Shown here: one piece after another, positions 1,447 through 11,132 of the stretch | Numbering within the stretch: position 1 is the stretch's first letter | Layout of the letters: every line of letters begins with the position of its first letter | DNA from: a virus | Direction: 5' to 3' (one strand) | UHGV virus genome: UHGV-0041836 | Length of the DNA stretch: 41,113 nucleotides | Position numbers and translations under genes: made by a program | Notes under the pieces: model-generated | What the model was told of the DNA's origin: nothing | The model's input: the letters and a program-made list of their open reading frames with translations, nothing else | Database searches by the model: none

Positions 1447-2139
1447 TTATTGCGTGAGCTTCGCATGATAGCTGGAGCATCTCTTGTCATCACTAATTAG
1501 CTCCGCTTTATCCGTTCTTGCCCATATTATATTTCTTTTTATTATTTTTGCTGGATTACCGGCTGCTGCACACATAGATGGCACATCTTTAGTTACAATA
1601 CTCCCATACCCAATGACAGATCCGCTTCCAACAGATACCCCTTTCATTATAGAGACATTTCTCCCTACCCATACGTAACTAGATATAATGATATCTTTTG
1701 CCCAATTAATCCTTTTTTTGCTATGAATATCAAATATAGGATGCCCATCTGATGCACGCAAAATAACATCTCTTGCTATCATGCAGTCATGGCCAATTGT
1801 AACATTGCACTTATCAGTGACGACTTCAAAACCTGCACCTATTGTCGTTCTTCTACCGATAATAACTTTTGAACCTTTTGTTGCGACAATATCACCTTTA
1901 ATCTTACTGTTTTTATGTATTCTTACGTAATTATTATCACCCCTAAATATTACGGTAAGCCATCGACACTCAACATCATCTTCTATAATAAGTTTGTTAT
2001 TGTTTCCATTGAACTGAACTTTATTCTCTTTGCTATTTACAAGATCTCCACATACAAAAATATTACCTGATCCATTATCATCAACGGAAAACGAGTCTTG
2101 AGTCTTGAGTCTTGAGTCTTGAGTCTTGAGTCTTGACAT
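1447..2139 (-). CDS. neuO: hexapeptide-repeat (left-handed beta-helix) O-acetyltransferase, NeuO-like polysialic acid O-acetyltransferase, phase-variable
   Basis: 230-aa ORF beginning MS(RLKTQDS)x2 encoded by heptanucleotide repeats; hexapeptide acetyltransferase-like body (VIIGRRTTIGAGFEVV, VWVGRNVSIMKGVSVGSGSVIGYGSIV); AT-rich codon usage; AGGA RBS 8 nt upstream of ATG. Confidence 0.85.
   Translation of the reverse strand: MSRLKTQDSRLKTQDSFSVDDNGSGNIFVCGDLVNSKENKVQFNGNNNKLIIEDDVECRWLTVIFRGDNNYVRIHKNSKIKGDIVATKGSKVIIGRRTTIGAGFEVVTDKCNVTIGHDCMIARDVILRASDGHPIFDIHSKKRINWAKDIIISSYVWVGRNVSIMKGVSVGSGSVIGYGSIVTKDVPSMCAAAGNPAKIIKRNIIWARTDKAELISDDKRCSSYHAKLTQ
2093..2134 (-). repeat. 6 tandem copies of heptanucleotide AAGACTC (coding strand) at codons 2-15 of neuO; contingency (phase-variation) tract
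   Basis: Plus strand shows GAGTCTT x6 immediately 5' of CAT (ATG on minus strand). 6 copies = 42 nt, so the reading frame is maintained. Confidence 0.95.
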
Positions 2140-2292: not shown

Positions 2293-5241
2293 TTAGTGCT
2301 TCCCTTCTATTAAGTCTAACCTAGCTTTTATTCTTTCTATTTCTCTGCGCTGCCATGCCGCCTCGATATAGAATAAGAGATCAGGTCTGACCCCCCATCT
2401 AGATCCTGCTGGCGTTATTTCAACGCGCTCAATGATGTCTTCCATTACCATCACTGGATTATCATCCTCATCAACAATGATGCTCCCGTCATTATCAGTC
2501 AGCGGCATTTCCCTTTGGCCAGTAATGACGTCATCATATACTGCGGGATAATCGTCATAGCAAAGAAACGCATAGCGGCATGTTGTGCTTTCTTCTTCCA
2601 TGAGTCCGTGAGAAATAAGAACATCACGAAGTTGCTGCGCGATTACACCATGATGTATCCTCGCCCCTTCTTCCCCCTTTATAGCGACAGCGTTCAGCCA
2701 TTTATAAGCGATATACCTGACGTCACCCCAGGCATCCAGCAATGCTTCGTCAGGAGAGACCGGCTCTGTCTTTAATGTTCCGTCACTGGTAACCACAGGA
2801 TTGGAGCCAAGATAAACTGTCGAGAACCTGTTTCCCGGACCACCAAGAGCATTTACATTATCAAGATAAGGTTTAACATCTCCGTTCTCAAAAAGATGTT
2901 CGAGTGCGTTATATACCGCGCGACGTGGAGTACTGCTTCCGGAACCATGCAACGTTATCATTGCACCATCTGCTGAAGACGTTGTTTCACCGCCGCTAAC
3001 GATTAATCTCTGAGCGGTAACATCATCAGACGGTACTTTCTTCGCAATAATGGCGTAATTACCCTCAAGTTTGACTTCCGCGCGAACTTGTCCTGATGTA
3101 CCTGCATGGACAGTCAGTGACTGGACGGCAACATCATCTGTGAAATCAACGGGTACAGGAACCGTCCTCACGCCTGACGTCGACATAAAAGTAGGAAGCG
3201 TTCTGTTAGGAGTGGCTCCGTAGACAAAATCCCTTGAAACAAATTCTTCCTGTTTAATTTTCACCCTGAAACAATACAAATCAGCCGGGTGACCATCGTG
3301 AACATAAGGATATTTTCTGTTGTTATCCCCTATGCTCCATGGGTTTAGAAAGTCTTCCCCACCGAAAATGTAGTACAGCCAGTTGTCTTTGATACAAACT
3401 GAACCAACACCAACCGCAGAGTTAACTATTCCGCCCTGATAAATCTGATCAGTAACATTAACCCACTCTACATTATCCAGACTCCACTCATTGACGTTAA
3501 CTCTGGTCATAAATGTTCTTGGATAGTTTCCTGCATAACGGTTATCAGGTTCTCCTCCTTCCCACTCACCAAATGCGCGCTCACTGCCAAAAATAATCAG
3601 CTCATCGCCAACTTTGGCAAAAGGAAGGTTTGAGTGATGAACATTATTTGGGAAGCGAAGAGAATTCCATGATGTACCTAAATCAGAGCTTCTGTGCAAT
3701 GAACTACCGGGTTGAGTACTTAATGTCCCCCTGGTCGTCAGATACAGAATGCCATCATAATATTTTACACATGGCTCAGATGCATTCGCCTCATATTCTG
3801 CAGGTATGCGTCTGCGAACAAAGCTACCAGGAGAACCGAAAGCATCAGAGAAATAGAGTATCCCAAGCTCGCGTGGACCAATATCACCATTATGGTAGCC
3901 AACAGCAAAACTGTTATCGCTAATCGTCGCAAAACTGTGAATCTCAGTAACAGGAGTGCTTCCGTCAACAAAAGAAGGAATAGTTCCAAGACTGGTTTTT
4001 CTCCATGGTGACGAGTGAAATGATGTACCAAAACTCCAGTATCTACCCTCGTTATTCTGATCCACATCCTGGGTATTTTGCGTCGTAACTGTAAAAGTAT
4101 TTTTATCAATAACAGTAGTCACCGTCATATTCCCGGTAACACCTGTAACACCAGAGTTTGAGAAGTTGACAAAATCACCAGCAAATAATCCGTGATCAGT
4201 AATGCGAATATAAGCGACTTGCTGATTTGCTGCTTTCGTTATACCACCATAAGCGCGAAGGCTGCGACTCATTGGGCGATCCCACAACTCTGCAACCTGC
4301 AGTTTATTTCCGCTCACGGTCCGCGTCTCAATTACAGCAAAAAGGCGATTTCTGACAACCCCCATACTCATGCAGTGATAGTTAACTGTGGGATAGTTTT
4401 CATGTAAATCTGTAAGCCATTCCGGCGTTGTCCAGGTCCTCCCGTCATCTCCTGAGCGAACCCATGCAACATGGAGGTTATTTACACCATGGCGGTCTCC
4501 AGCCATAAAAGGCGCATAGATGACATTGTCATATACAAACGTTTTATCCTGCGTCCAGGCGTTGTACCACGGTGTATCTGTAATTTTAAATAACTCTCCC
4601 TGGATAAAATCTTCAGAAGCATAAAAAAGAGGCTGACCCGGTATTCTCTCAAATAAAAAACGAGCATTTTTAAATCGACTGACATCTGGAAGAGTTGATA
4701 CTTTAAAAGTAAGCCCTCGCCCATCTATCTTTTCACCACCTGTTGCAACAGAAAGTAATTCTGATAGAGCTGATGTATCATCATGAACACCATCACCAAT
4801 AGCCCCCCAACCTCTTACATCATAACTGTCTCTCCATCTTGCTATCTGAAGTTTTGGGTATTTATTCGCTCCATCTGGGTCTTCTAATTGCTGCCGTAAC
4901 TGATCAGGATCATACTTCAGCACATTCGGAAAATAGAACTGCTGCACACCATATGCATCATAAACAGCCATAGAATGGCCCTGTACAGTAACGAATTTGG
5001 CAATCTGTCCGTTATATACCGGATATCCAGCAGCGTTAATGATGATTGGTTGCGAAACAGGAACGTGAGAACCGTCTTCATTCTCCACATAAACCTGAAT
5101 CTGGTTTTCAGGATTTACTGGGTCAGTGTCAATTTTACCGATATAAATCTTTCCATTAGCTACGGCTTTAAAAGAACGAGCCATAGTGAAGAGTTGCGAA
5201 GGCATGCTTACCACAACATTGGCATTTATTGAATCTGTCAT
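2293..5241 (-). CDS. tailspike: P22 gp9-like N-terminal head-binding domain, endo-N-acetylneuraminidase (endosialidase)-like central domain, C-terminal intramolecular-chaperone (peptidase S74-like) domain
   Basis: 982 aa; N-terminus [61 protein letters not shown] closely matches the P22 tailspike N-domain as recalled; Asp-box motifs SGDDGRTW and SSDLGTSW; C-terminal region resembles autoproteolytic chaperone domains of K1 endosialidases / T5 L-shaped fibre (from memory). Confidence 0.85.
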
Positions 5242-5327
5242 TTAATTTGCTCCAGATACAAGGAATCACCGAAGCATGGCTACGATGAATTTTGGGCATA
5301 AAAAAANNNNNNNNNNGGATAATTTTG

Positions 5328-5356
5328 GGAAAAAAAAAACCCCAGCCGAAGCTGGG
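5328..5356 (-). terminator. rho-independent terminator after ant (minus strand)
   Basis: CCCAGC-CGAA-GCTGGG hairpin with run of T on the minus strand (A-run 5328-5339 on plus); adjacent to a 10-N gap at 5307-5316. Confidence 0.5.
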
Positions 5357-5375
5357 TTGTCGCGTTGGTTATCTG

Positions 5376-6305
5376 TCAGTAGTTATGTACTGAAGGAGGT
5401 AATTCTTTATTCTTAAGTCTCATCCATGCGGAAAGATTCGTTGGTCCGTCTGGCTCATTGATATCAACATCTCGTGTGTGGTTTATTAAAACGTCTCTTG
5501 CCATTCCGATAACATACGAGAACTCATGGCCATAGTCGTAGCATCTGCCGGAATAGTTCGATTGAATTTGTTTTAGCGCCGGATACAGTTCGCGGAATAA
5601 TGCCTGTGCGCGGTTGGCATAATCCCATAACCATACAAGGCTGTTTGCTTCTTTTGCAGAAAGCTCGTTTGCTTTCTTCTCTTGTTTGCCGATTAACTCG
5701 CCTTCAAGCGGAACGCGAGCTGCAAGTGACAGAGCTTCGGTAAACTGCTCATCGCTGATTTCTTTGTATGAACATCCAAAATGGGATTTCAGTGACGACC
5801 ACATGGTGATCATCGCCTTAGCCTGTTTTTCCTTTGGCAGAGACTGACCGCGACTCATGACGAGTTGTTTAATGGCTTCCTGCTGTTCAGTGGTGATTTT
5901 ACCCGGCAACGCCTTTTTAGCTTTGCGTGGGTTAACTACATGGCCTTTAGTCCAGTATTCGTAGAGCACATCGTCACACTCTTCCTGATACTGGATTACC
6001 TTGTCGCGGATTTCAGGGCGGACTTTGTTAGGGCTAATGGTTTGCAGCCAACCTGCAAGTTTGCGAAGTGCCAAACAAATAATCTCACGGCGCTGTTCAT
6101 CACTAGGAAGCTGCATTGTGATTTTCACAATGGAGGTTTTAAACCGCTGCTTCATTTTCGTAAACTGTGAAGCCCAATCCATACCCATGCCTTCAACGAT
6201 AGGTTTCATTGGGGTATACGGTTCGCCGTTGTGATTGACAACATAAAGCTCTGCGCCGTGGAATGGTACATTGATAGTAGATACTGCTGTTGCTATACTT
6301 TTCAT
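5376..6305 (-). CDS. ant: antirepressor Ant (P22 immI-type)
   Basis: 309 aa, N-terminus MKSIATAVSTINVPFHGAELYVVNHNGEPYTPMKPIVEGMGMDW typical of P22-like antirepressors; sits downstream of arc. Confidence 0.8.
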   Translation of the reverse strand: MKSIATAVSTINVPFHGAELYVVNHNGEPYTPMKPIVEGMGMDWASQFTKMKQRFKTSIVKITMQLPSDEQRREIICLALRKLAGWLQTISPNKVRPEIRDKVIQYQEECDDVLYEYWTKGHVVNPRKAKKALPGKITTEQQEAIKQLVMSRGQSLPKEKQAKAMITMWSSLKSHFGCSYKEISDEQFTEALSLAARVPLEGELIGKQEKKANELSAKEANSLVWLWDYANRAQALFRELYPALKQIQSNYSGRCYDYGHEFSYVIGMARDVLINHTRDVDINEPDGPTNLSAWMRLKNKELPPSVHNY

Positions 6306-6538: not shown

Positions 6539-6727
6539 TCACACCGTTACCCCCTCTCTCTTCAGGCTGTCTATCAGGCGCTTGATAACCTCTGAGTTAA
6601 ACGACCTGCACTCTTCCTTTGCCCTGCTACCGATAGCATCCTTTAACGACTGCGGCATCCTTACCAAAATCTTACTTATTTCTTTCTCCATGTTACCCTC
6701 CACACAAACAACTCTTTTCGAATACAA
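6539..6727 (-). CDS. arc: Arc-like ribbon-helix-helix repressor
   Basis: 62 aa; MPQSLKDAIGSRAKEECRSFNSEVIKRLIDSLKREG resembles P22 Arc (RHH fold, ...GRSVNSEI...); divergent from mnt. Confidence 0.8.
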   Translation of the reverse strand: MYSKRVVCVEGNMEKEISKILVRMPQSLKDAIGSRAKEECRSFNSEVIKRLIDSLKREGVTV

Positions 6728-6805
6728 AAGATAGCAAAGTGAGTATATCTAGTCAAAATTTTTTTGCATACACTTTGATATCAAATTGAATACCAAAGGT
6801 GTGAT
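6728..6805. promoter_or_regulatory. divergent Pant/Pmnt-type promoter-operator region between arc and mnt
   Basis: 78-bp AT-rich intergenic region between divergently transcribed RHH repressor genes; operator positions not resolved. Confidence 0.5.
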
Positions 6806-7054
6806 ATGGCAAAGGGTGTGTCAATTTCTCCAACTACGGTAAGAATCCCTGAATCTTTACGCGAGGCTCTTGCTGTCAGAGCATCAAAAAATGGTCGCTC
6901 TGTTAACTCCGAGATCGTCATGATTTTGCAAGCCGCGATTGATGAAGATAGGTCGCCAAAGTCAGTTGAGTCATTTGCTCAGCAAGAAGCTGACAAATTC
7001 AAAGAGGCGCTGCTTGAGACGCTAAAGACCATGTATGGTAAGGATGAAAAATAA
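6806..7054 (+). CDS. mnt: Mnt-like ribbon-helix-helix repressor
   Basis: 82 aa; RIPESLREALAVRASKNGRSVNSEIVMILQAAI resembles P22 Mnt N-terminal RHH DNA-binding domain. Confidence 0.8.
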   Translation: MAKGVSISPTTVRIPESLREALAVRASKNGRSVNSEIVMILQAAIDEDRSPKSVESFAQQEADKFKEALLETLKTMYGKDEK

Positions 7055-7590
7055 TGCTGCACACAATTCATTTCTTATGCCCCGTTAACACTGCCACTGT
7101 TGGGCAACTTCAGAACCACTGTCTCACCGCATTATCTCAAGGCGCAACTGAATTAAATATCCATATATCAAGTCAGGGAGGGGAAACTGCCGCTGGCTTT
7201 ACTGCGTATAACTTTCTTAAGTCACTCCCTGTTACCGTTAGAACTCACAACATAAGCAATGTTGAATCCATAGCTAATATCGTTTTCCTGGCTGGCTCAG
7301 AACGTTTCGCAAACCCATTATCAAGATTCCTGTTACATCCTCTATTATGGGGCTTTGCCTCCCCAGCCGCCGACCATGCCAGATTGAGAGAGTACGGGAA
7401 ATGCCTCGATAACGATCTTGATCGCTTCGTTGAGACGTTCAATATCGACATCGGAACCCATATTAGGTGGGCATCCCTGATAGCAGACTCGACCATTTTG
7501 GATGCTAACAAGGCTCTTGAGCATGGCATAATTAATTCCATAAAAACTGCAAGGCTGGCATCCAATCAGGCAAACTGGTGGGTTGTTTGA
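7054..7590 (+). CDS. ClpP-fold (S14/S49-like) serine protease homologue, translationally coupled to mnt
   Basis: 178 aa; ELNIHISSQGGETAAGFTAYNFL aligns with ClpP YINSPGGVITAGMSIYDTM; candidate catalytic Ser in NVESIANIVFLAGS (cf. ClpP GQAASMGAFLL) and His in LLHPL (cf. MIHQP). Start ATG overlaps mnt stop (TAATG). By-eye alignment only. Confidence 0.6.
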   Translation: MLHTIHFLCPVNTATVGQLQNHCLTALSQGATELNIHISSQGGETAAGFTAYNFLKSLPVTVRTHNISNVESIANIVFLAGSERFANPLSRFLLHPLLWGFASPAADHARLREYGKCLDNDLDRFVETFNIDIGTHIRWASLIADSTILDANKALEHGIINSIKTARLASNQANWWVV

Positions 7591-7615: not shown

Positions 7616-7644
7616 AAAAAACCCACCTGACGGTGGGTTTTATT
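7616..7644. terminator. bidirectional rho-independent terminator between the convergent ClpP-like and toxin-like genes
   Basis: AAAAAA-CCCACC-TGAC-GGTGGG-TTTTATT: perfect 6-bp stem flanked by A-run and T-run. Confidence 0.6.
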
Positions 7645-8065
7645 AGTGCTTGTATAGCTTGAACTCCCTGTCGAGCCATAAGACATAAAAAGTGGCTCCT
7701 ATCTTATAACCAACCATAGGTGCCTTAGAGCAAAATCTGAACGCAATGAAATCCACATCTTGAGTAACATGCTTAGGAATCGGAGCCTTTATCGCGTTTC
7801 TGGCAATTTTTTCCGTCCCAAGCCCGTGTTTATCAGATTTTCGTATCTCATCCCATGACATCTGACTTAACCTGAACAGCCTATCTGCAAATGCTGCCTT
7901 TTCATGCTTTTGGCAGCAATCTAGGCAATACCCCTTTTGTAGGTATCTAAGAGAAAATACAGGCGGACTTTTGTCTACATCATGAGATTCGTGATGGATA
8001 GAGAGGCCAACAGTAGCAGAGCTCTCTTTATCCCTCTGTTTTATTCTTCCCTTAACTCTAGACAT
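7643..8065 (-). CDS. uncharacterised 140-aa protein, candidate toxin partner of the upstream Panacea-domain protein
   Basis: ORF begins 5 bp downstream of the Panacea-domain ORF on the same strand; Cys-rich (CLDCCQKH); no family recognised by eye; an R-x4-H (RKSDKH) is noted but not diagnostic. Confidence 0.5.
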   Translation of the reverse strand: MSRVKGRIKQRDKESSATVGLSIHHESHDVDKSPPVFSLRYLQKGYCLDCCQKHEKAAFADRLFRLSQMSWDEIRKSDKHGLGTEKIARNAIKAPIPKHVTQDVDFIAFRFCSKAPMVGYKIGATFYVLWLDREFKLYKH

Positions 8066-8070
8066 ACACG

Positions 8071-8520
8071 TCAGTTAATTAACGTTTTGAAAAAACCTTT
8101 CATAGAATCAAGTGTGATTTCTTGGCTAACCGCACCCTCAATGTAAGCATCTTTCCATGGCTGCTCTTCGTGAGTCATATTGCGCAGTTTCCAGGCAGAA
8201 AACTGACCATAAACTTTATACACCTCATCCAGCAATTCAATTTCATCTTCACTGAATTTTTTAGCGTCAAAGTTTTCTGGCGCAGGTAAAGCTCCGTTAC
8301 CACAGTCCCTATATTTACGATACAATTCAGGAACTACTGGCCCATGCATCCAGGCTTCAATTTTCTCATTAAATAGCGGCTTACCCAGAAGAACCAGAGA
8401 AAACCCTTGGGCATAATACGTCAACTTCTGAATTTTTAGGTTAGAGATAATGTCGCCACTTTCTTCATCGCAATGCGCCAAGAAGTAGTCGGCGACATCA
8501 AAACAAGTGAGCATAAACAT
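8071..8520 (-). CDS. Panacea-domain (DUF4065, SocA/GepA-like) protein, candidate antitoxin
   Basis: 149 aa; DVADYFL...ISNLKIQKLTYYAQGFSLVLLGKPLFNEKIEAWMHGPVVPELYRKY matches the DUF4065/Panacea signature (LKLQKLLYYAQGW...GPV.P..Y) as recalled. Confidence 0.7.
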   Translation of the reverse strand: MFMLTCFDVADYFLAHCDEESGDIISNLKIQKLTYYAQGFSLVLLGKPLFNEKIEAWMHGPVVPELYRKYRDCGNGALPAPENFDAKKFSEDEIELLDEVYKVYGQFSAWKLRNMTHEEQPWKDAYIEGAVSQEITLDSMKGFFKTLIN

Positions 8521-8888: not shown

Positions 8889-9278
8889 GTGAGGCAATTT
8901 CTTGCTGCTATGTTCTTATTCATATCTTTTGGGGCTACAGCAGAGTGCTGGGTAGTTGGAGATATGCGCGGAATAAGCTATTCAGAACGAAATAATTTCC
9001 AACCAGAAGAAGATGGTTTTAGTGGAACATTCATCATTAAGACAAGCGGTGAAGATGCCAGCATCACATATTCTGGGGCAGATGCGGGCGGCATGGCTTA
9101 CAAAGCATTGTCTAAAAACTCCATCATAGGAATCGGCGCAAATGGCGAAACTCAACGCGTTATCGACTCATGGGTAATACATCCTACTGGAACAGTTTTA
9201 ATGTCAAAAACCATTTCCGGTTATGGAAATATGGATTCAACCAAAGCTTTTGTTGGAAAAGTAAAAAGAAAATGTTAA
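8889..9278 (+). CDS. small secreted protein (Sec signal peptide, AxA cleavage site), moron of unknown function
   Basis: 129 aa; GTG start with AAGGAGG RBS 6 nt upstream; N-terminal hydrophobic segment FLAAMFLFISFGATA followed by EC; Cys near both ends of the mature protein; opposite strand to the flanking late genes, preceded by a 368-bp AT-rich region. Confidence 0.6.
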   Translation: MRQFLAAMFLFISFGATAECWVVGDMRGISYSERNNFQPEEDGFSGTFIIKTSGEDASITYSGADAGGMAYKALSKNSIIGIGANGETQRVIDSWVIHPTGTVLMSKTISGYGNMDSTKAFVGKVKRKC

Positions 9279-9302: not shown

Positions 9303-11132
9303 TTACTGCTGTGTTGCCTCAGTAGCAAACAGCGGTCTGATGGCATTCGCAGCATTATTCAGCGCTCTTTCATAAGCTGGCGTTCCAGCTTTAGTGTTTG
9401 CCAGACGTAAGAGCGCATTCCTTGTTGCTTTGGACTCATACAGGCGCATCATTGTACCGAAACCAGATTCAAGCGCCAGTGTTGCCCCAAGAGTCGCAGT
9501 TGCGCCAATCGTCCTTATCCTGTTGGCTTGCGATTGCCCTGTCTGAGTTACAACATTTGCGATGTCTGACCTTGCTGTTTGCTGTAGAACTTCATGAAGA
9601 GCATCAAGCTCTTTCATGTGTCTCCCACTGAATATCGTGTTATATATCTGACCGTCAGATTGCGACTTCAACTTATTTAACTCGGTAAGAAATTTTGTTG
9701 GCGAGTCTCCTGCCTTTTCTGCAATCTTGCTAATATAAGCAGCACGCATAGCGTTCTTTCCATCTTCACTAAGAGCAGGCCATATCCTCTTAATATCTGA
9801 TGGTTTTCTGCTGAATACAACGCTGTTTATTAGCTCTGGAGTAAACTCTTTTTTAGCTTTGTTGAGATTGTTCGCAATCCTTTTATTGAGAACCTTATTG
9901 AAGACGTTGGAGTAGTCAGAGTTTGCTTTGACGTATCTGGCAGCCTCTCCAGCCCCCAAATACCGTGCTGCGTTATTCCTCAAATCTGAACCCATTGCCC
10001 TCTCCACGGCATCAGTTGCGGCTTTCGCGCTATTAGGAAAAACCATGGCATCTCCCTGAATACTTTCCCTTAATGCTGACCGCAACTCTCTCAATAGTCC
10101 AAAATCTACATCTGGTTTAGCAAGCTCTTCTCGCAAATCGGATAGCCCGCGAATCAAATCCTTATTTGCCACTTTCCCAAGCCTGTTAGCCCTGGTAAGC
10201 ACGTTGTCGATAACCTTAATGGATTTTGATGTGTCAACAGGTGTATCTCCCATTTTAGTTGTAATGTCTTCAATAACGCTTCCAGCTGAATCCTTCCTTG
10301 ACTTCAGAGAACCATACAGATCGTCAACAACAACTGATGGGCTATATTCACCATATTTCTCAAGCTGTTTTTTAACTAGCTGACTTCTTTTTGCATATTG
10401 CTCCGCACGCTTTGAACCTGTCCCGAGCAAAGCCCCCTCGGCATCCTGAGTAAGGCCGCGAGTGAAAGCATTTTTCGGCGGGATAACATCAGATGTCATT
10501 GGTGTCACGCCCATCGATTCTGATGTGGCAATTTTCTTCGCCACTTCTGGCGCAATATCACCTTTTATAGCCGTTATTCCACGCCCTATTCCCTTTGCTG
10601 CTGCGGAAAGAACCCCCTGAGCGGCAAGGTTAACTCCGGCATTTTTTGCTGCATTTTGTGCGAAATCGCCTTTCTGATTTGCGGCCTCTGCCAGTGATCC
10701 AATAGCCATGCTTCCTGCCGTTCCAACTCCTGGAACTAAATACCCGCCAATTGTTTCTCCAGTTTGCGCATAAGGGTCTGTCGGTCGATCGACTGGACGA
10801 TAGACATCATCCAATACTTTTGGACCACCAAGCCCCTGACTGATTGCATTAATCAGACTTGCGCCACCCTGCAATACGTCAAATGGTATGTTTACCAGAC
10901 CACGACCAGCCTGTTCTGCAATTTGCCCTGCACTTTGACCACCTGTGAGCCAATCGCCAGCTTGTTGCATCAATGATGGTTCTTCCCGTGTTGGTGCATT
11001 ATTGGCCTGATTAACTGTTTGTTGCTGAACAGCCTGACCAGCAAAATACTCATCAATGGCGGCCCCAATATCTTCGGTGCTCGTACCATCAGGAAAGGTA
11101 AATGTCTTACCGTTTGCAGTTACTTTCATCAT
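9303..11132 (-). CDS. ejection/internal virion protein, P22 gp16-like
   Basis: 609 aa (same length as P22 gp16 as recalled); position after gp20-like gene in conserved P22 order. Confidence 0.8.

Follow-up and report, generated by a model that had tools for sequence, protein, structure and literature searches.

A short ClpP-family serine peptidase gene adjoining an mnt-like repressor gene in a P22-like Escherichia coli prophage

The virus genome UHGV-0041836 (41,113 nucleotides; the whole of this stretch is called the window here) carries a short gene for a ClpP-family serine peptidase of 178 amino acids (aa) directly after an Mnt-like repressor gene (positions 7054 to 7590, plus strand). The protein is, to judge from its sequence, a stripped ClpP that lacks the catalytic Asp, the N-terminal gate, and the hydrophobic pocket on which ClpX and ClpA dock. 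Its nearest structural relative is the accessory ClpP1 of Pseudomonas plecoglossicida (PpClpP1). We consider it probable that the gene is an accessory ("moron") gene expressed in the lysogen and that its product is a ClpP ring of the PpClpP1 type, which would modify Clp proteolysis there. The molecule itself is of a known type, since RefSeq already names the protein "ATP-dependent Clp protease proteolytic subunit" and the structure of a homologue has been solved.

Family, fold, and active site of the protein

The likeness to ClpP that an earlier note on this DNA had proposed from alignment by eye was borne out by profile and structure comparisons. The Pfam model CLP_protease (PF00574) matched residues 24-165 with 46.6 bits, above its cutoff of 20.2 bits (E value, 4.8e-12). 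The best match in the Protein Data Bank was 9UXT (E value, 2.8e-35; residues 3-175), and housekeeping ClpPs came next (E values, 1e-8 to 1e-4). An AlphaFold2 model computed from an alignment of 24 sequences (predicted local distance difference test score, 87.1; predicted template modeling [TM] score, 0.84) shows the ClpP alpha/beta fold with its handle helix. Foldseek aligned this model to 9UXT with a TM score of 0.90, compared with 0.72-0.79 for the remaining top-50 solved ClpP chains. The NCBIfam equivalog models for housekeeping ClpP were not reached (best model, 41.1 bits; cutoff, 251).

Entry 9UXT is the cryo-electron microscopy structure of PpClpP1, which its authors treated as peculiar to a single fish pathogen (PMC12900304). 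PpClpP1 forms a homotetradecamer with a pore of 42.7 Å, and its catalytic efficiency is 13-fold below that of the housekeeping ClpP (PMC12900304). Its "triad" is Ser-His-Pro; peptidase activity needs the Ser and the His, the Ser-to-Ala mutant is inactive, and about 60% of the activity is retained when the third residue is changed (PMC12900304). ClpX is not bound by PpClpP1. Together with the housekeeping ClpP, it forms a heterotetradecamer that is more active both alone and with ClpX, and its authors read PpClpP1 as latent until paired (PMC12900304). The prophage protein is homologous to PpClpP1 over its full length (178 versus 183 aa), has lost the same axial loop and helix A, and shares the conserved Ser and His and a nonacidic third residue; its polar docking pocket fits the failure of PpClpP1 to bind ClpX. 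The two differ in the third position itself (Pro in PpClpP1) and in a C-terminal NWWV tail on the prophage protein. They also differ in setting, as the Pseudomonas genes are chromosomal, whereas the gene in the window travels with a prophage and is coupled to the gene of a repressor. The results for PpClpP1 are used below, by analogy, as a model for the prophage protein.

Active-site positions were compared in two alignments, one of 24 close homologues and one of 123 full-length sequences, each representing a cluster at 50% identity, from a search of 1.84 billion proteins. The catalytic Ser and His that the earlier note had thought plausible correspond to the canonical residues: Ser72, the predicted nucleophile (TCC codon at 7267 to 7269, plus strand), equals E. 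coli Ser97 and PpClpP1 Ser73, and His95, the predicted general base (CAT codon at 7336 to 7338, plus strand), equals E. coli His122 and PpClpP1 His96. Gly42 and Gly43 (codons at 7177 to 7182, plus strand) precede them, with Gly43 at the place of the glycine that ClpP has in its oxyanion hole (E. coli Gly68). All four residues are invariant in both sets (24/24 and 123/123). The three sequence pairings made by eye were also borne out. Those of ISSQGG with INSPGG and of LLHPL with MIHQP agree with the alignments; for NVESIANIVFL against GQAASMGAFLL the region was right and the register was off by one residue, the correct partner being SNVESIANIVF.

The full Ser-His-Asp arrangement that had been anticipated was not found. 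The third position is occupied by Ser146 (codon at 7489 to 7491, plus strand), at the place of the E. coli catalytic Asp171, and it is not conserved in the family: close relatives have Ser or Ala, and distant ones have Gly, Ala, Ser, Arg, Glu, or Pro. The adjacent Asp145 was considered as a substitute for the missing Asp and was rejected as a family feature, as position 145 is variable. Catalysis is nevertheless under selection, because Ser72, His95, and the Gly-Gly pair are invariant in such diverged relatives. The ratio of nonsynonymous to synonymous substitution rates (dN/dS) was about 0.08 against the Pectobacterium gene; within E. coli there were only three differences to work with, and synonymous sites were saturated in comparisons with more distant genera. 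From these sequence comparisons we conclude that the catalytic core is maintained by purifying selection.

Other parts of the canonical subunit are gone. The N terminus of the protein lies at the equivalent of residue ~27 of mature E. coli ClpP, so that the axial loop and helix A are missing, and most relatives have only 1 to 10 residues ahead of the same point. Seven of the 10 positions that in E. coli ClpP line the hydrophobic pocket for the IGF/LGF loops of ClpX and ClpA are polar here (Y60N, Y62H, F82S, I90H, L114N, L189K, and F49T). At the other end, the protein has gained the NWWV extension, which is conserved in the close family and is a tail that canonical ClpP does not have. Its Trp-Trp-Val part (7576 to 7587; residues 175-177) forms a short strand in the predicted model, and a looser aromatic or aliphatic version occurs in many distant short ClpPs.

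Junction with mnt and distribution of the family

The Mnt-like gene (6806 to 7054, plus strand) is the first of the two genes of the operon. It encodes an 82-aa ribbon-helix-helix repressor (Pfam Arc, 41.8 bits; FitA-like_RHH, 34.4 bits) with a C-terminal tail like that of P22 Mnt, and its Pectobacterium counterpart also matches the Pfam family PF11423 Repressor_Mnt. The protease gene begins on the mnt stop codon, as the earlier note had stated: TAA (7052-7054) and ATG (7054-7056) share the middle A of TAATG, an overlap of one base. A Shine-Dalgarno sequence, AAGGA (7040-7044), lies within the end of mnt, 9 nucleotides (nt) upstream of the ATG, and completes the coupling junction (7040 to 7056, plus strand). 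Both the TAATG overlap and the AAGGA are kept in a prophage of Pectobacterium, which encodes a protein with 80% identity, and in phage PhiR12_1; a Providencia prophage has a 27-nt spacer between the two genes, and the protease gene there has its own AAGGA.

Upstream of the operon, the divergent control region between the arc-like and mnt-like genes (6728 to 6805) holds a candidate promoter-like site, TTGACT-17-TATCTT, proposed from its position only (6756 to 6728, minus strand). An 18-nt inverted repeat (6762-6797; 78% complementary), centered on the palindrome TTTGATATCAAA just upstream of mnt, is a candidate operator. A promoter scan of the arc/mnt region yielded 5 promoter-like sites against 4.7 expected in shuffled sequences; since this is no excess, no promoter was assigned. 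Downstream, a hairpin (AAAACCCACC-TGAC-GGTGGGTTTT; 7618 to 7641) is flanked by runs of A and T. Its folding energy was -15.4 kcal/mol (z, -3.74), and 0 of 200 shuffles folded equally well. The terminator scan did not call this element; folding supports the hairpin, which is likely a bidirectional terminator that ends both the mnt-clpP operon and the convergent gene at 7643 to 8065 (minus strand).

The exact protease gene was found in 128 of 5,426 complete E. coli genomes (~2.4%), always on the chromosome, and in six deposited E. coli phages. Carriers include E. coli ATCC 11775 and APEC O1. Of the 25 matches listed, 23 lie over an annotated Arc-family gene, and the other 2 are truncated. It is not a plasmid gene, since 72,556 plasmids gave a single match, with 51% identity. 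A profile search of genome contigs with the family alignment returned 9 loci. Fourteen distinct contexts from Enterobacterales and Chromobacterium were examined. All are prophages, and none places the gene in a head module. Two Pantoea loci were left out of these 14, one whose scanned neighbors had no Pfam match (L016) and one with a similar open reading frame (ORF) layout (L023).

The contexts fall at several places on the phage genomes. Copies behind mnt in a P22-like immI region occur in E. coli (the window and phiv205-1), Pectobacterium (80% identity), and Providencia (66%). In the PhiR12 phages, the whole ant-arc-mnt-clpP block lies between the lambda-like tail genes L and K; PhiR12_1 (L011), a 54-kb siphovirus, has the complete cassette at 3525 to 5537. 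Between the lysis cassette and the terminase, in the opposite orientation, the gene is found in Leclercia (75%), in Klebsiella (two alleles), in Citrobacter, and as a second E. coli allele. In Rahnella it lies upstream of a lambda-type terminase and portal, with no lysis genes identified, and in Proteus between N and the erf/ssb genes. Chromobacterium, Pantoea dispersa, and an Enterobacterales metagenome-assembled genome carry it among the tail or baseplate genes of prophages that resemble myoviruses or Mu. Wherever it is not behind mnt, it is a lone gene opposed to its neighbors; two of these copies have one ORF close by in the same orientation. These stand-alone copies have an upstream spacer of roughly 80 to 260 bp, and their flanks of about 200 bp contain no shared small ORF or conserved element.

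Comparison with two phages clarified the link to mnt. In PhiR12_1, the 5' half of mnt, which is the DNA-binding half, is unlike that in the window, while the last ~75 nt of mnt and the protease gene are identical. The identity begins at about window position 6996, which points to a recombination joint inside mnt. Because the PhiR12_1 mnt differs only at its 5' side, the mnt tail and clpP look like one mobile unit, linked through shared transcription and translation. CUS-3, which is otherwise 97% identical over the aligned parts, has unrelated genes after mnt, so this slot is one for variable cargo.

Outside phages, the PpClpP1-type genes of Pseudomonas (L032-L037) are chromosomal and lie in conserved synteny with genes for a KGG-repeat stress protein and a DUF6555 protein in putida-group and fluorescens-group genomes. 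This synteny hints at a role of the chromosomal form in stress or stationary phase. More widely, the short Ser-His ClpP clade comprised 2,720 clusters at an E value of <=1e-3 and 539 at <=1e-10, part of them phage-borne. The most economical account is that an accessory ClpP paralogue of bacteria was captured by phages.

Possible action in the lysogen and alternative explanations

In P22-type lysogens, mnt is the immI gene that is kept on, and we infer expression of the protease gene in the lysogen because of this. The protease gene is translationally coupled to mnt and would be cotranscribed with it, and the protein would be made continuously in the lysogen and not at virion assembly. By analogy with PpClpP1, it would assemble into heptameric rings. 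Such rings should be incapable of recruiting ClpX or ClpA themselves, and they would act either as a low-activity, open-pore peptidase or, as seems preferable, stacked on host ClpP. We favor stacking because the protein would bind no unfoldase of its own and because PpClpP1 and the two-isoform ClpP systems offer precedents; as a separate step it is put forward tentatively, by analogy. The resulting hybrid tetradecamer would bind ClpX or ClpA through its host face and present an open pore on its phage face, and it would change the rate at which Clp proteolysis runs in the lysogen, or its specificity. The gain would be a lysogen trait, such as superinfection exclusion or defense, fitness under stress, or prophage stability, and not capsid maturation.

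Two groups of known systems can be set beside this proposal. The second ClpP isoforms of Pseudomonas aeruginosa (ClpP2), Listeria (ClpP1), and Mycobacterium (ClpP1P2) act only in mixed tetradecamers (PMC12900304). Like the prophage protein, they are extra paralogues with a deviant active site or with lost unfoldase-binding elements, and they function by stacking with a canonical ring. They are, in contrast, host genes that coevolved with their partner, and they are only 20 to 24% identical to the prophage protein in Foldseek alignments; a phage-borne ClpP is mobile and would need to work with any host ClpP. The second group is that of lysogen-expressed morons, among which we count P22 sieA behind mnt, lambda bor between Rz and cos, and rexAB and sieB near N. 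The protease genes occupy the same slots in the same orientation, with their own regulatory signals and a variable presence among related phages. None of those morons encodes a protease, and for the ClpP gene a role in conversion or exclusion is suggested only by its position. The gene in the window has the features of a prophage moron: it belongs to a separate transcription unit that runs against the lytic operons and ends here in its own terminator, and its presence in related phages is patchy.

Several points weigh against this proposal. Expression from the mnt promoter, ring assembly, and pairing with host ClpP are all steps that we infer, as is the pay-off, which is a guess from the position of the gene. 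PpClpP1 is only 38% identical to the prophage protein in the Foldseek alignment, and its partner was a Pseudomonas ClpP and not that of E. coli. In canonical ClpP, Glu169 and Arg170 (E. coli numbering), just before the catalytic Asp, act as a ring-ring "oligomerization sensor." The corresponding residues in the prophage protein are Ala144 and Asp145, and because the sensor residues are replaced and position 145 varies, the rules for stacking cannot be read from the sequence. The literature yielded no report on a ClpP gene of a prophage or an immI region, the 9UXT paper being the useful exception. PADLOC-DB 2.0 gave 0 families at an E value of <=0.01 for either the protease or mnt, which also counts against a defense function reached in another way.

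One such way is a stand-alone, gateless peptidase: a wide-pore homotetradecamer that works without an ATPase or host ClpP. Its substrates would be peptides and unfolded or newly injected proteins, for example proteins brought in by a superinfecting phage or, after a trigger, proteins of the host itself as part of abortive infection. The absence of the N-terminal gate suits this possibility, and N-terminal deletions and ADEP drugs are known to open ClpP to unfolded proteins. So does the place of the gene in the cargo slot behind mnt, where P22 has sieA, beside a probable toxin-antitoxin pair. PpClpP1 alone also makes a tetradecamer with the wide pore noted above and has measurable peptidase activity. 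That activity, however, is the one that falls 13-fold short of the housekeeping enzyme and was interpreted as latency, and a protease that is open and active at all times should be toxic. We therefore regard a stand-alone peptidase as unlikely, although it fares better than the explanations that follow.

The earlier note had taken the position in the immunity operon to point to regulators, superinfecting phage proteins, or a toxin as targets. The protein may act on such phage proteins or on a toxin. If it were instead dedicated to the immI circuit, it would tighten the lysogenic switch by trimming or removing Ant, Arc, or Mnt, and two observations agree with this: the coupling to mnt is conserved in three genera, and the PhiR12 phages have the ant-arc-mnt-clpP cassette transferred whole into their tail region. 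The wider distribution did not sustain the claim. Homologues with 53 to 75% identity occur in prophages that have no immI module, 11 other prophage contexts are entirely without ant, arc, and mnt, and the Pseudomonas homologues are chromosomal. Moreover, the DNA-binding halves of the upstream mnt genes differ while the mnt 3' end and clpP stay constant, a pattern more like that of a shared transcription unit than of coevolving partners, and in other P22-like phages this slot is filled by unrelated cargo. A role specific to immI is very unlikely, given the homologues in prophages that lack it.

The active-site comparisons bear in turn on the idea of a noncatalytic pseudoprotease with a ClpP fold that poisons or caps host ClpP. 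The missing catalytic Asp and the low activity of PpClpP1 would be in keeping with it, but Ser, His, and Gly-Gly would hardly be expected to persist in all 123 diverged relatives of such a protein, and the activity of PpClpP1 depends on Ser and His and largely survives the change of the third residue. We hold this explanation to be most improbable.

Finally, a prohead (head maturation) protease or its decayed remnant, the function annotated in GenBank for phiv205-1, is almost certainly not what the gene encodes, in line with the earlier note, which had thought the capsid a less likely target. The annotation has its sources: the best PHROG match is phrog_94, "head maturation protease" (E value, 1.5e-21), and the NCBIfam model Clp_rel_HeadMat (NF045542) scores 49.6 bits, although this is far under its cutoff of 120. 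ClpP-related prohead proteases likewise are phage-encoded and have the ClpP fold with Ser and His. The prophage protein, in contrast, has no attached scaffold or capsid domain, and its gene has the wrong location and orientation, lying outside the head module, on the opposite strand, with immI to one side and the ejection-protein genes to the other. The ClpP-like viral structures in BFVD are at most 26% identical to it, and the best of them are mostly much longer proteins; the strong purifying selection speaks against decay. The annotation is wrong, because a Citrobacter prophage carries both a homologue and, separately, a genuine S78 prohead protease and because the coat and portal of the window are of the P22 type, in which no protease is needed for the head to mature.

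Prophage setting and wider significance

By its gene content, the window is a CUS-3-like prophage, that is, a P22-like prophage of K1 E. coli. Its integrase gene and injectosome gene contribute to this assignment, as do genes for a coat, a portal, and a terminase of the P22 type; an ORF between the coat and portal genes, a candidate for the scaffold, had no Pfam match. The tailspike (2293 to 5241, minus strand) matches End_beta_propel with 775 bits and is an endosialidase; it also has a head-binding domain of the P22 type and a chaperone domain (S74). The prophage is therefore specific for the K1 capsule. The window also has a neuO-like hexapeptide acetyltransferase gene (1447 to 2139, minus strand) with heptanucleotide repeats at its 5' end. 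The repeat tract (2093 to 2136) has 6.3 perfect copies of GAGTCTT (AAGACTC on the coding strand), whereas the corresponding phase-variable tract of CUS-3 is annotated with 19 copies. An antirepressor gene (5376 to 6305, minus strand; P22_AR_N and P22_AR_C) and the Arc-like gene (6539 to 6727, minus strand), both divergent from mnt, form with the mnt-like gene a P22-type immI region.

On its other side, the protease gene converges with a pair of minus-strand genes (7643 to 8520). The upstream gene of the pair (8071 to 8520) resembles an antitoxin with a SocA/Panacea domain (Pfam, 87 bits), and the 140-aa product of the second (7643 to 8065) matches phrog_8366 and has weak matches to PADLOC NsnC and NCBIfam MAG6450. 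The pair is probably a PanA-type toxin-antitoxin or defense module. Caulobacter SocA is a ClpXP adaptor for its own toxin, and given that precedent, the adjacency of a Panacea pair and a ClpP gene may be meaningful; in phiv205-1, the protease gene is present with other neighbors. Farther along, an ORF for 129 aa (8889 to 9278, plus strand) has an N terminus like a signal peptide (MRQFLAAMFLFISFGATAEC...) and no Pfam match. It is opposed to the adjoining ejection-protein gene (9303 to 11132) and may be a second moron in the same variable region.

Automatic annotation presents genes of this kind as a housekeeping ClpP subunit or as a head protease, and the gene described here is neither. The family is common, being found also in prophages of Klebsiella, Citrobacter, Proteus, Pantoea, and Pectobacterium. 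We found no literature report of the clade as recurrent prophage cargo or as coupled to mnt in P22-like phages and none that places PpClpP1 in the large clade of short Ser-His ClpPs. PpClpP1 thus gains a wider setting, as a member of a large and partly phage-borne clade.

A bolder proposal, decidedly unlikely as a whole, is that temperate phages of enterobacteria captured a ClpP ring with neither gate nor dock that caps host ClpP and that the hybrid is a device for exclusion, defense, or prophage stability. If so, the hybrid could speed the destruction of replication or regulatory proteins of incoming phages or could control the neighboring Panacea pair. It would then represent a new class of lysogenic conversion or defense, in which a phage donates a subunit to a host machine and rewires the main regulated protease of the cell. 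The interest of the gene would be high if either the hybrid-protease or the defense interpretation is true. ClpXP and ClpAP determine what becomes of many regulators, both of phages and of their hosts, and a ClpP ring supplied by a phage during lysogeny could tune the Clp machinery from within.

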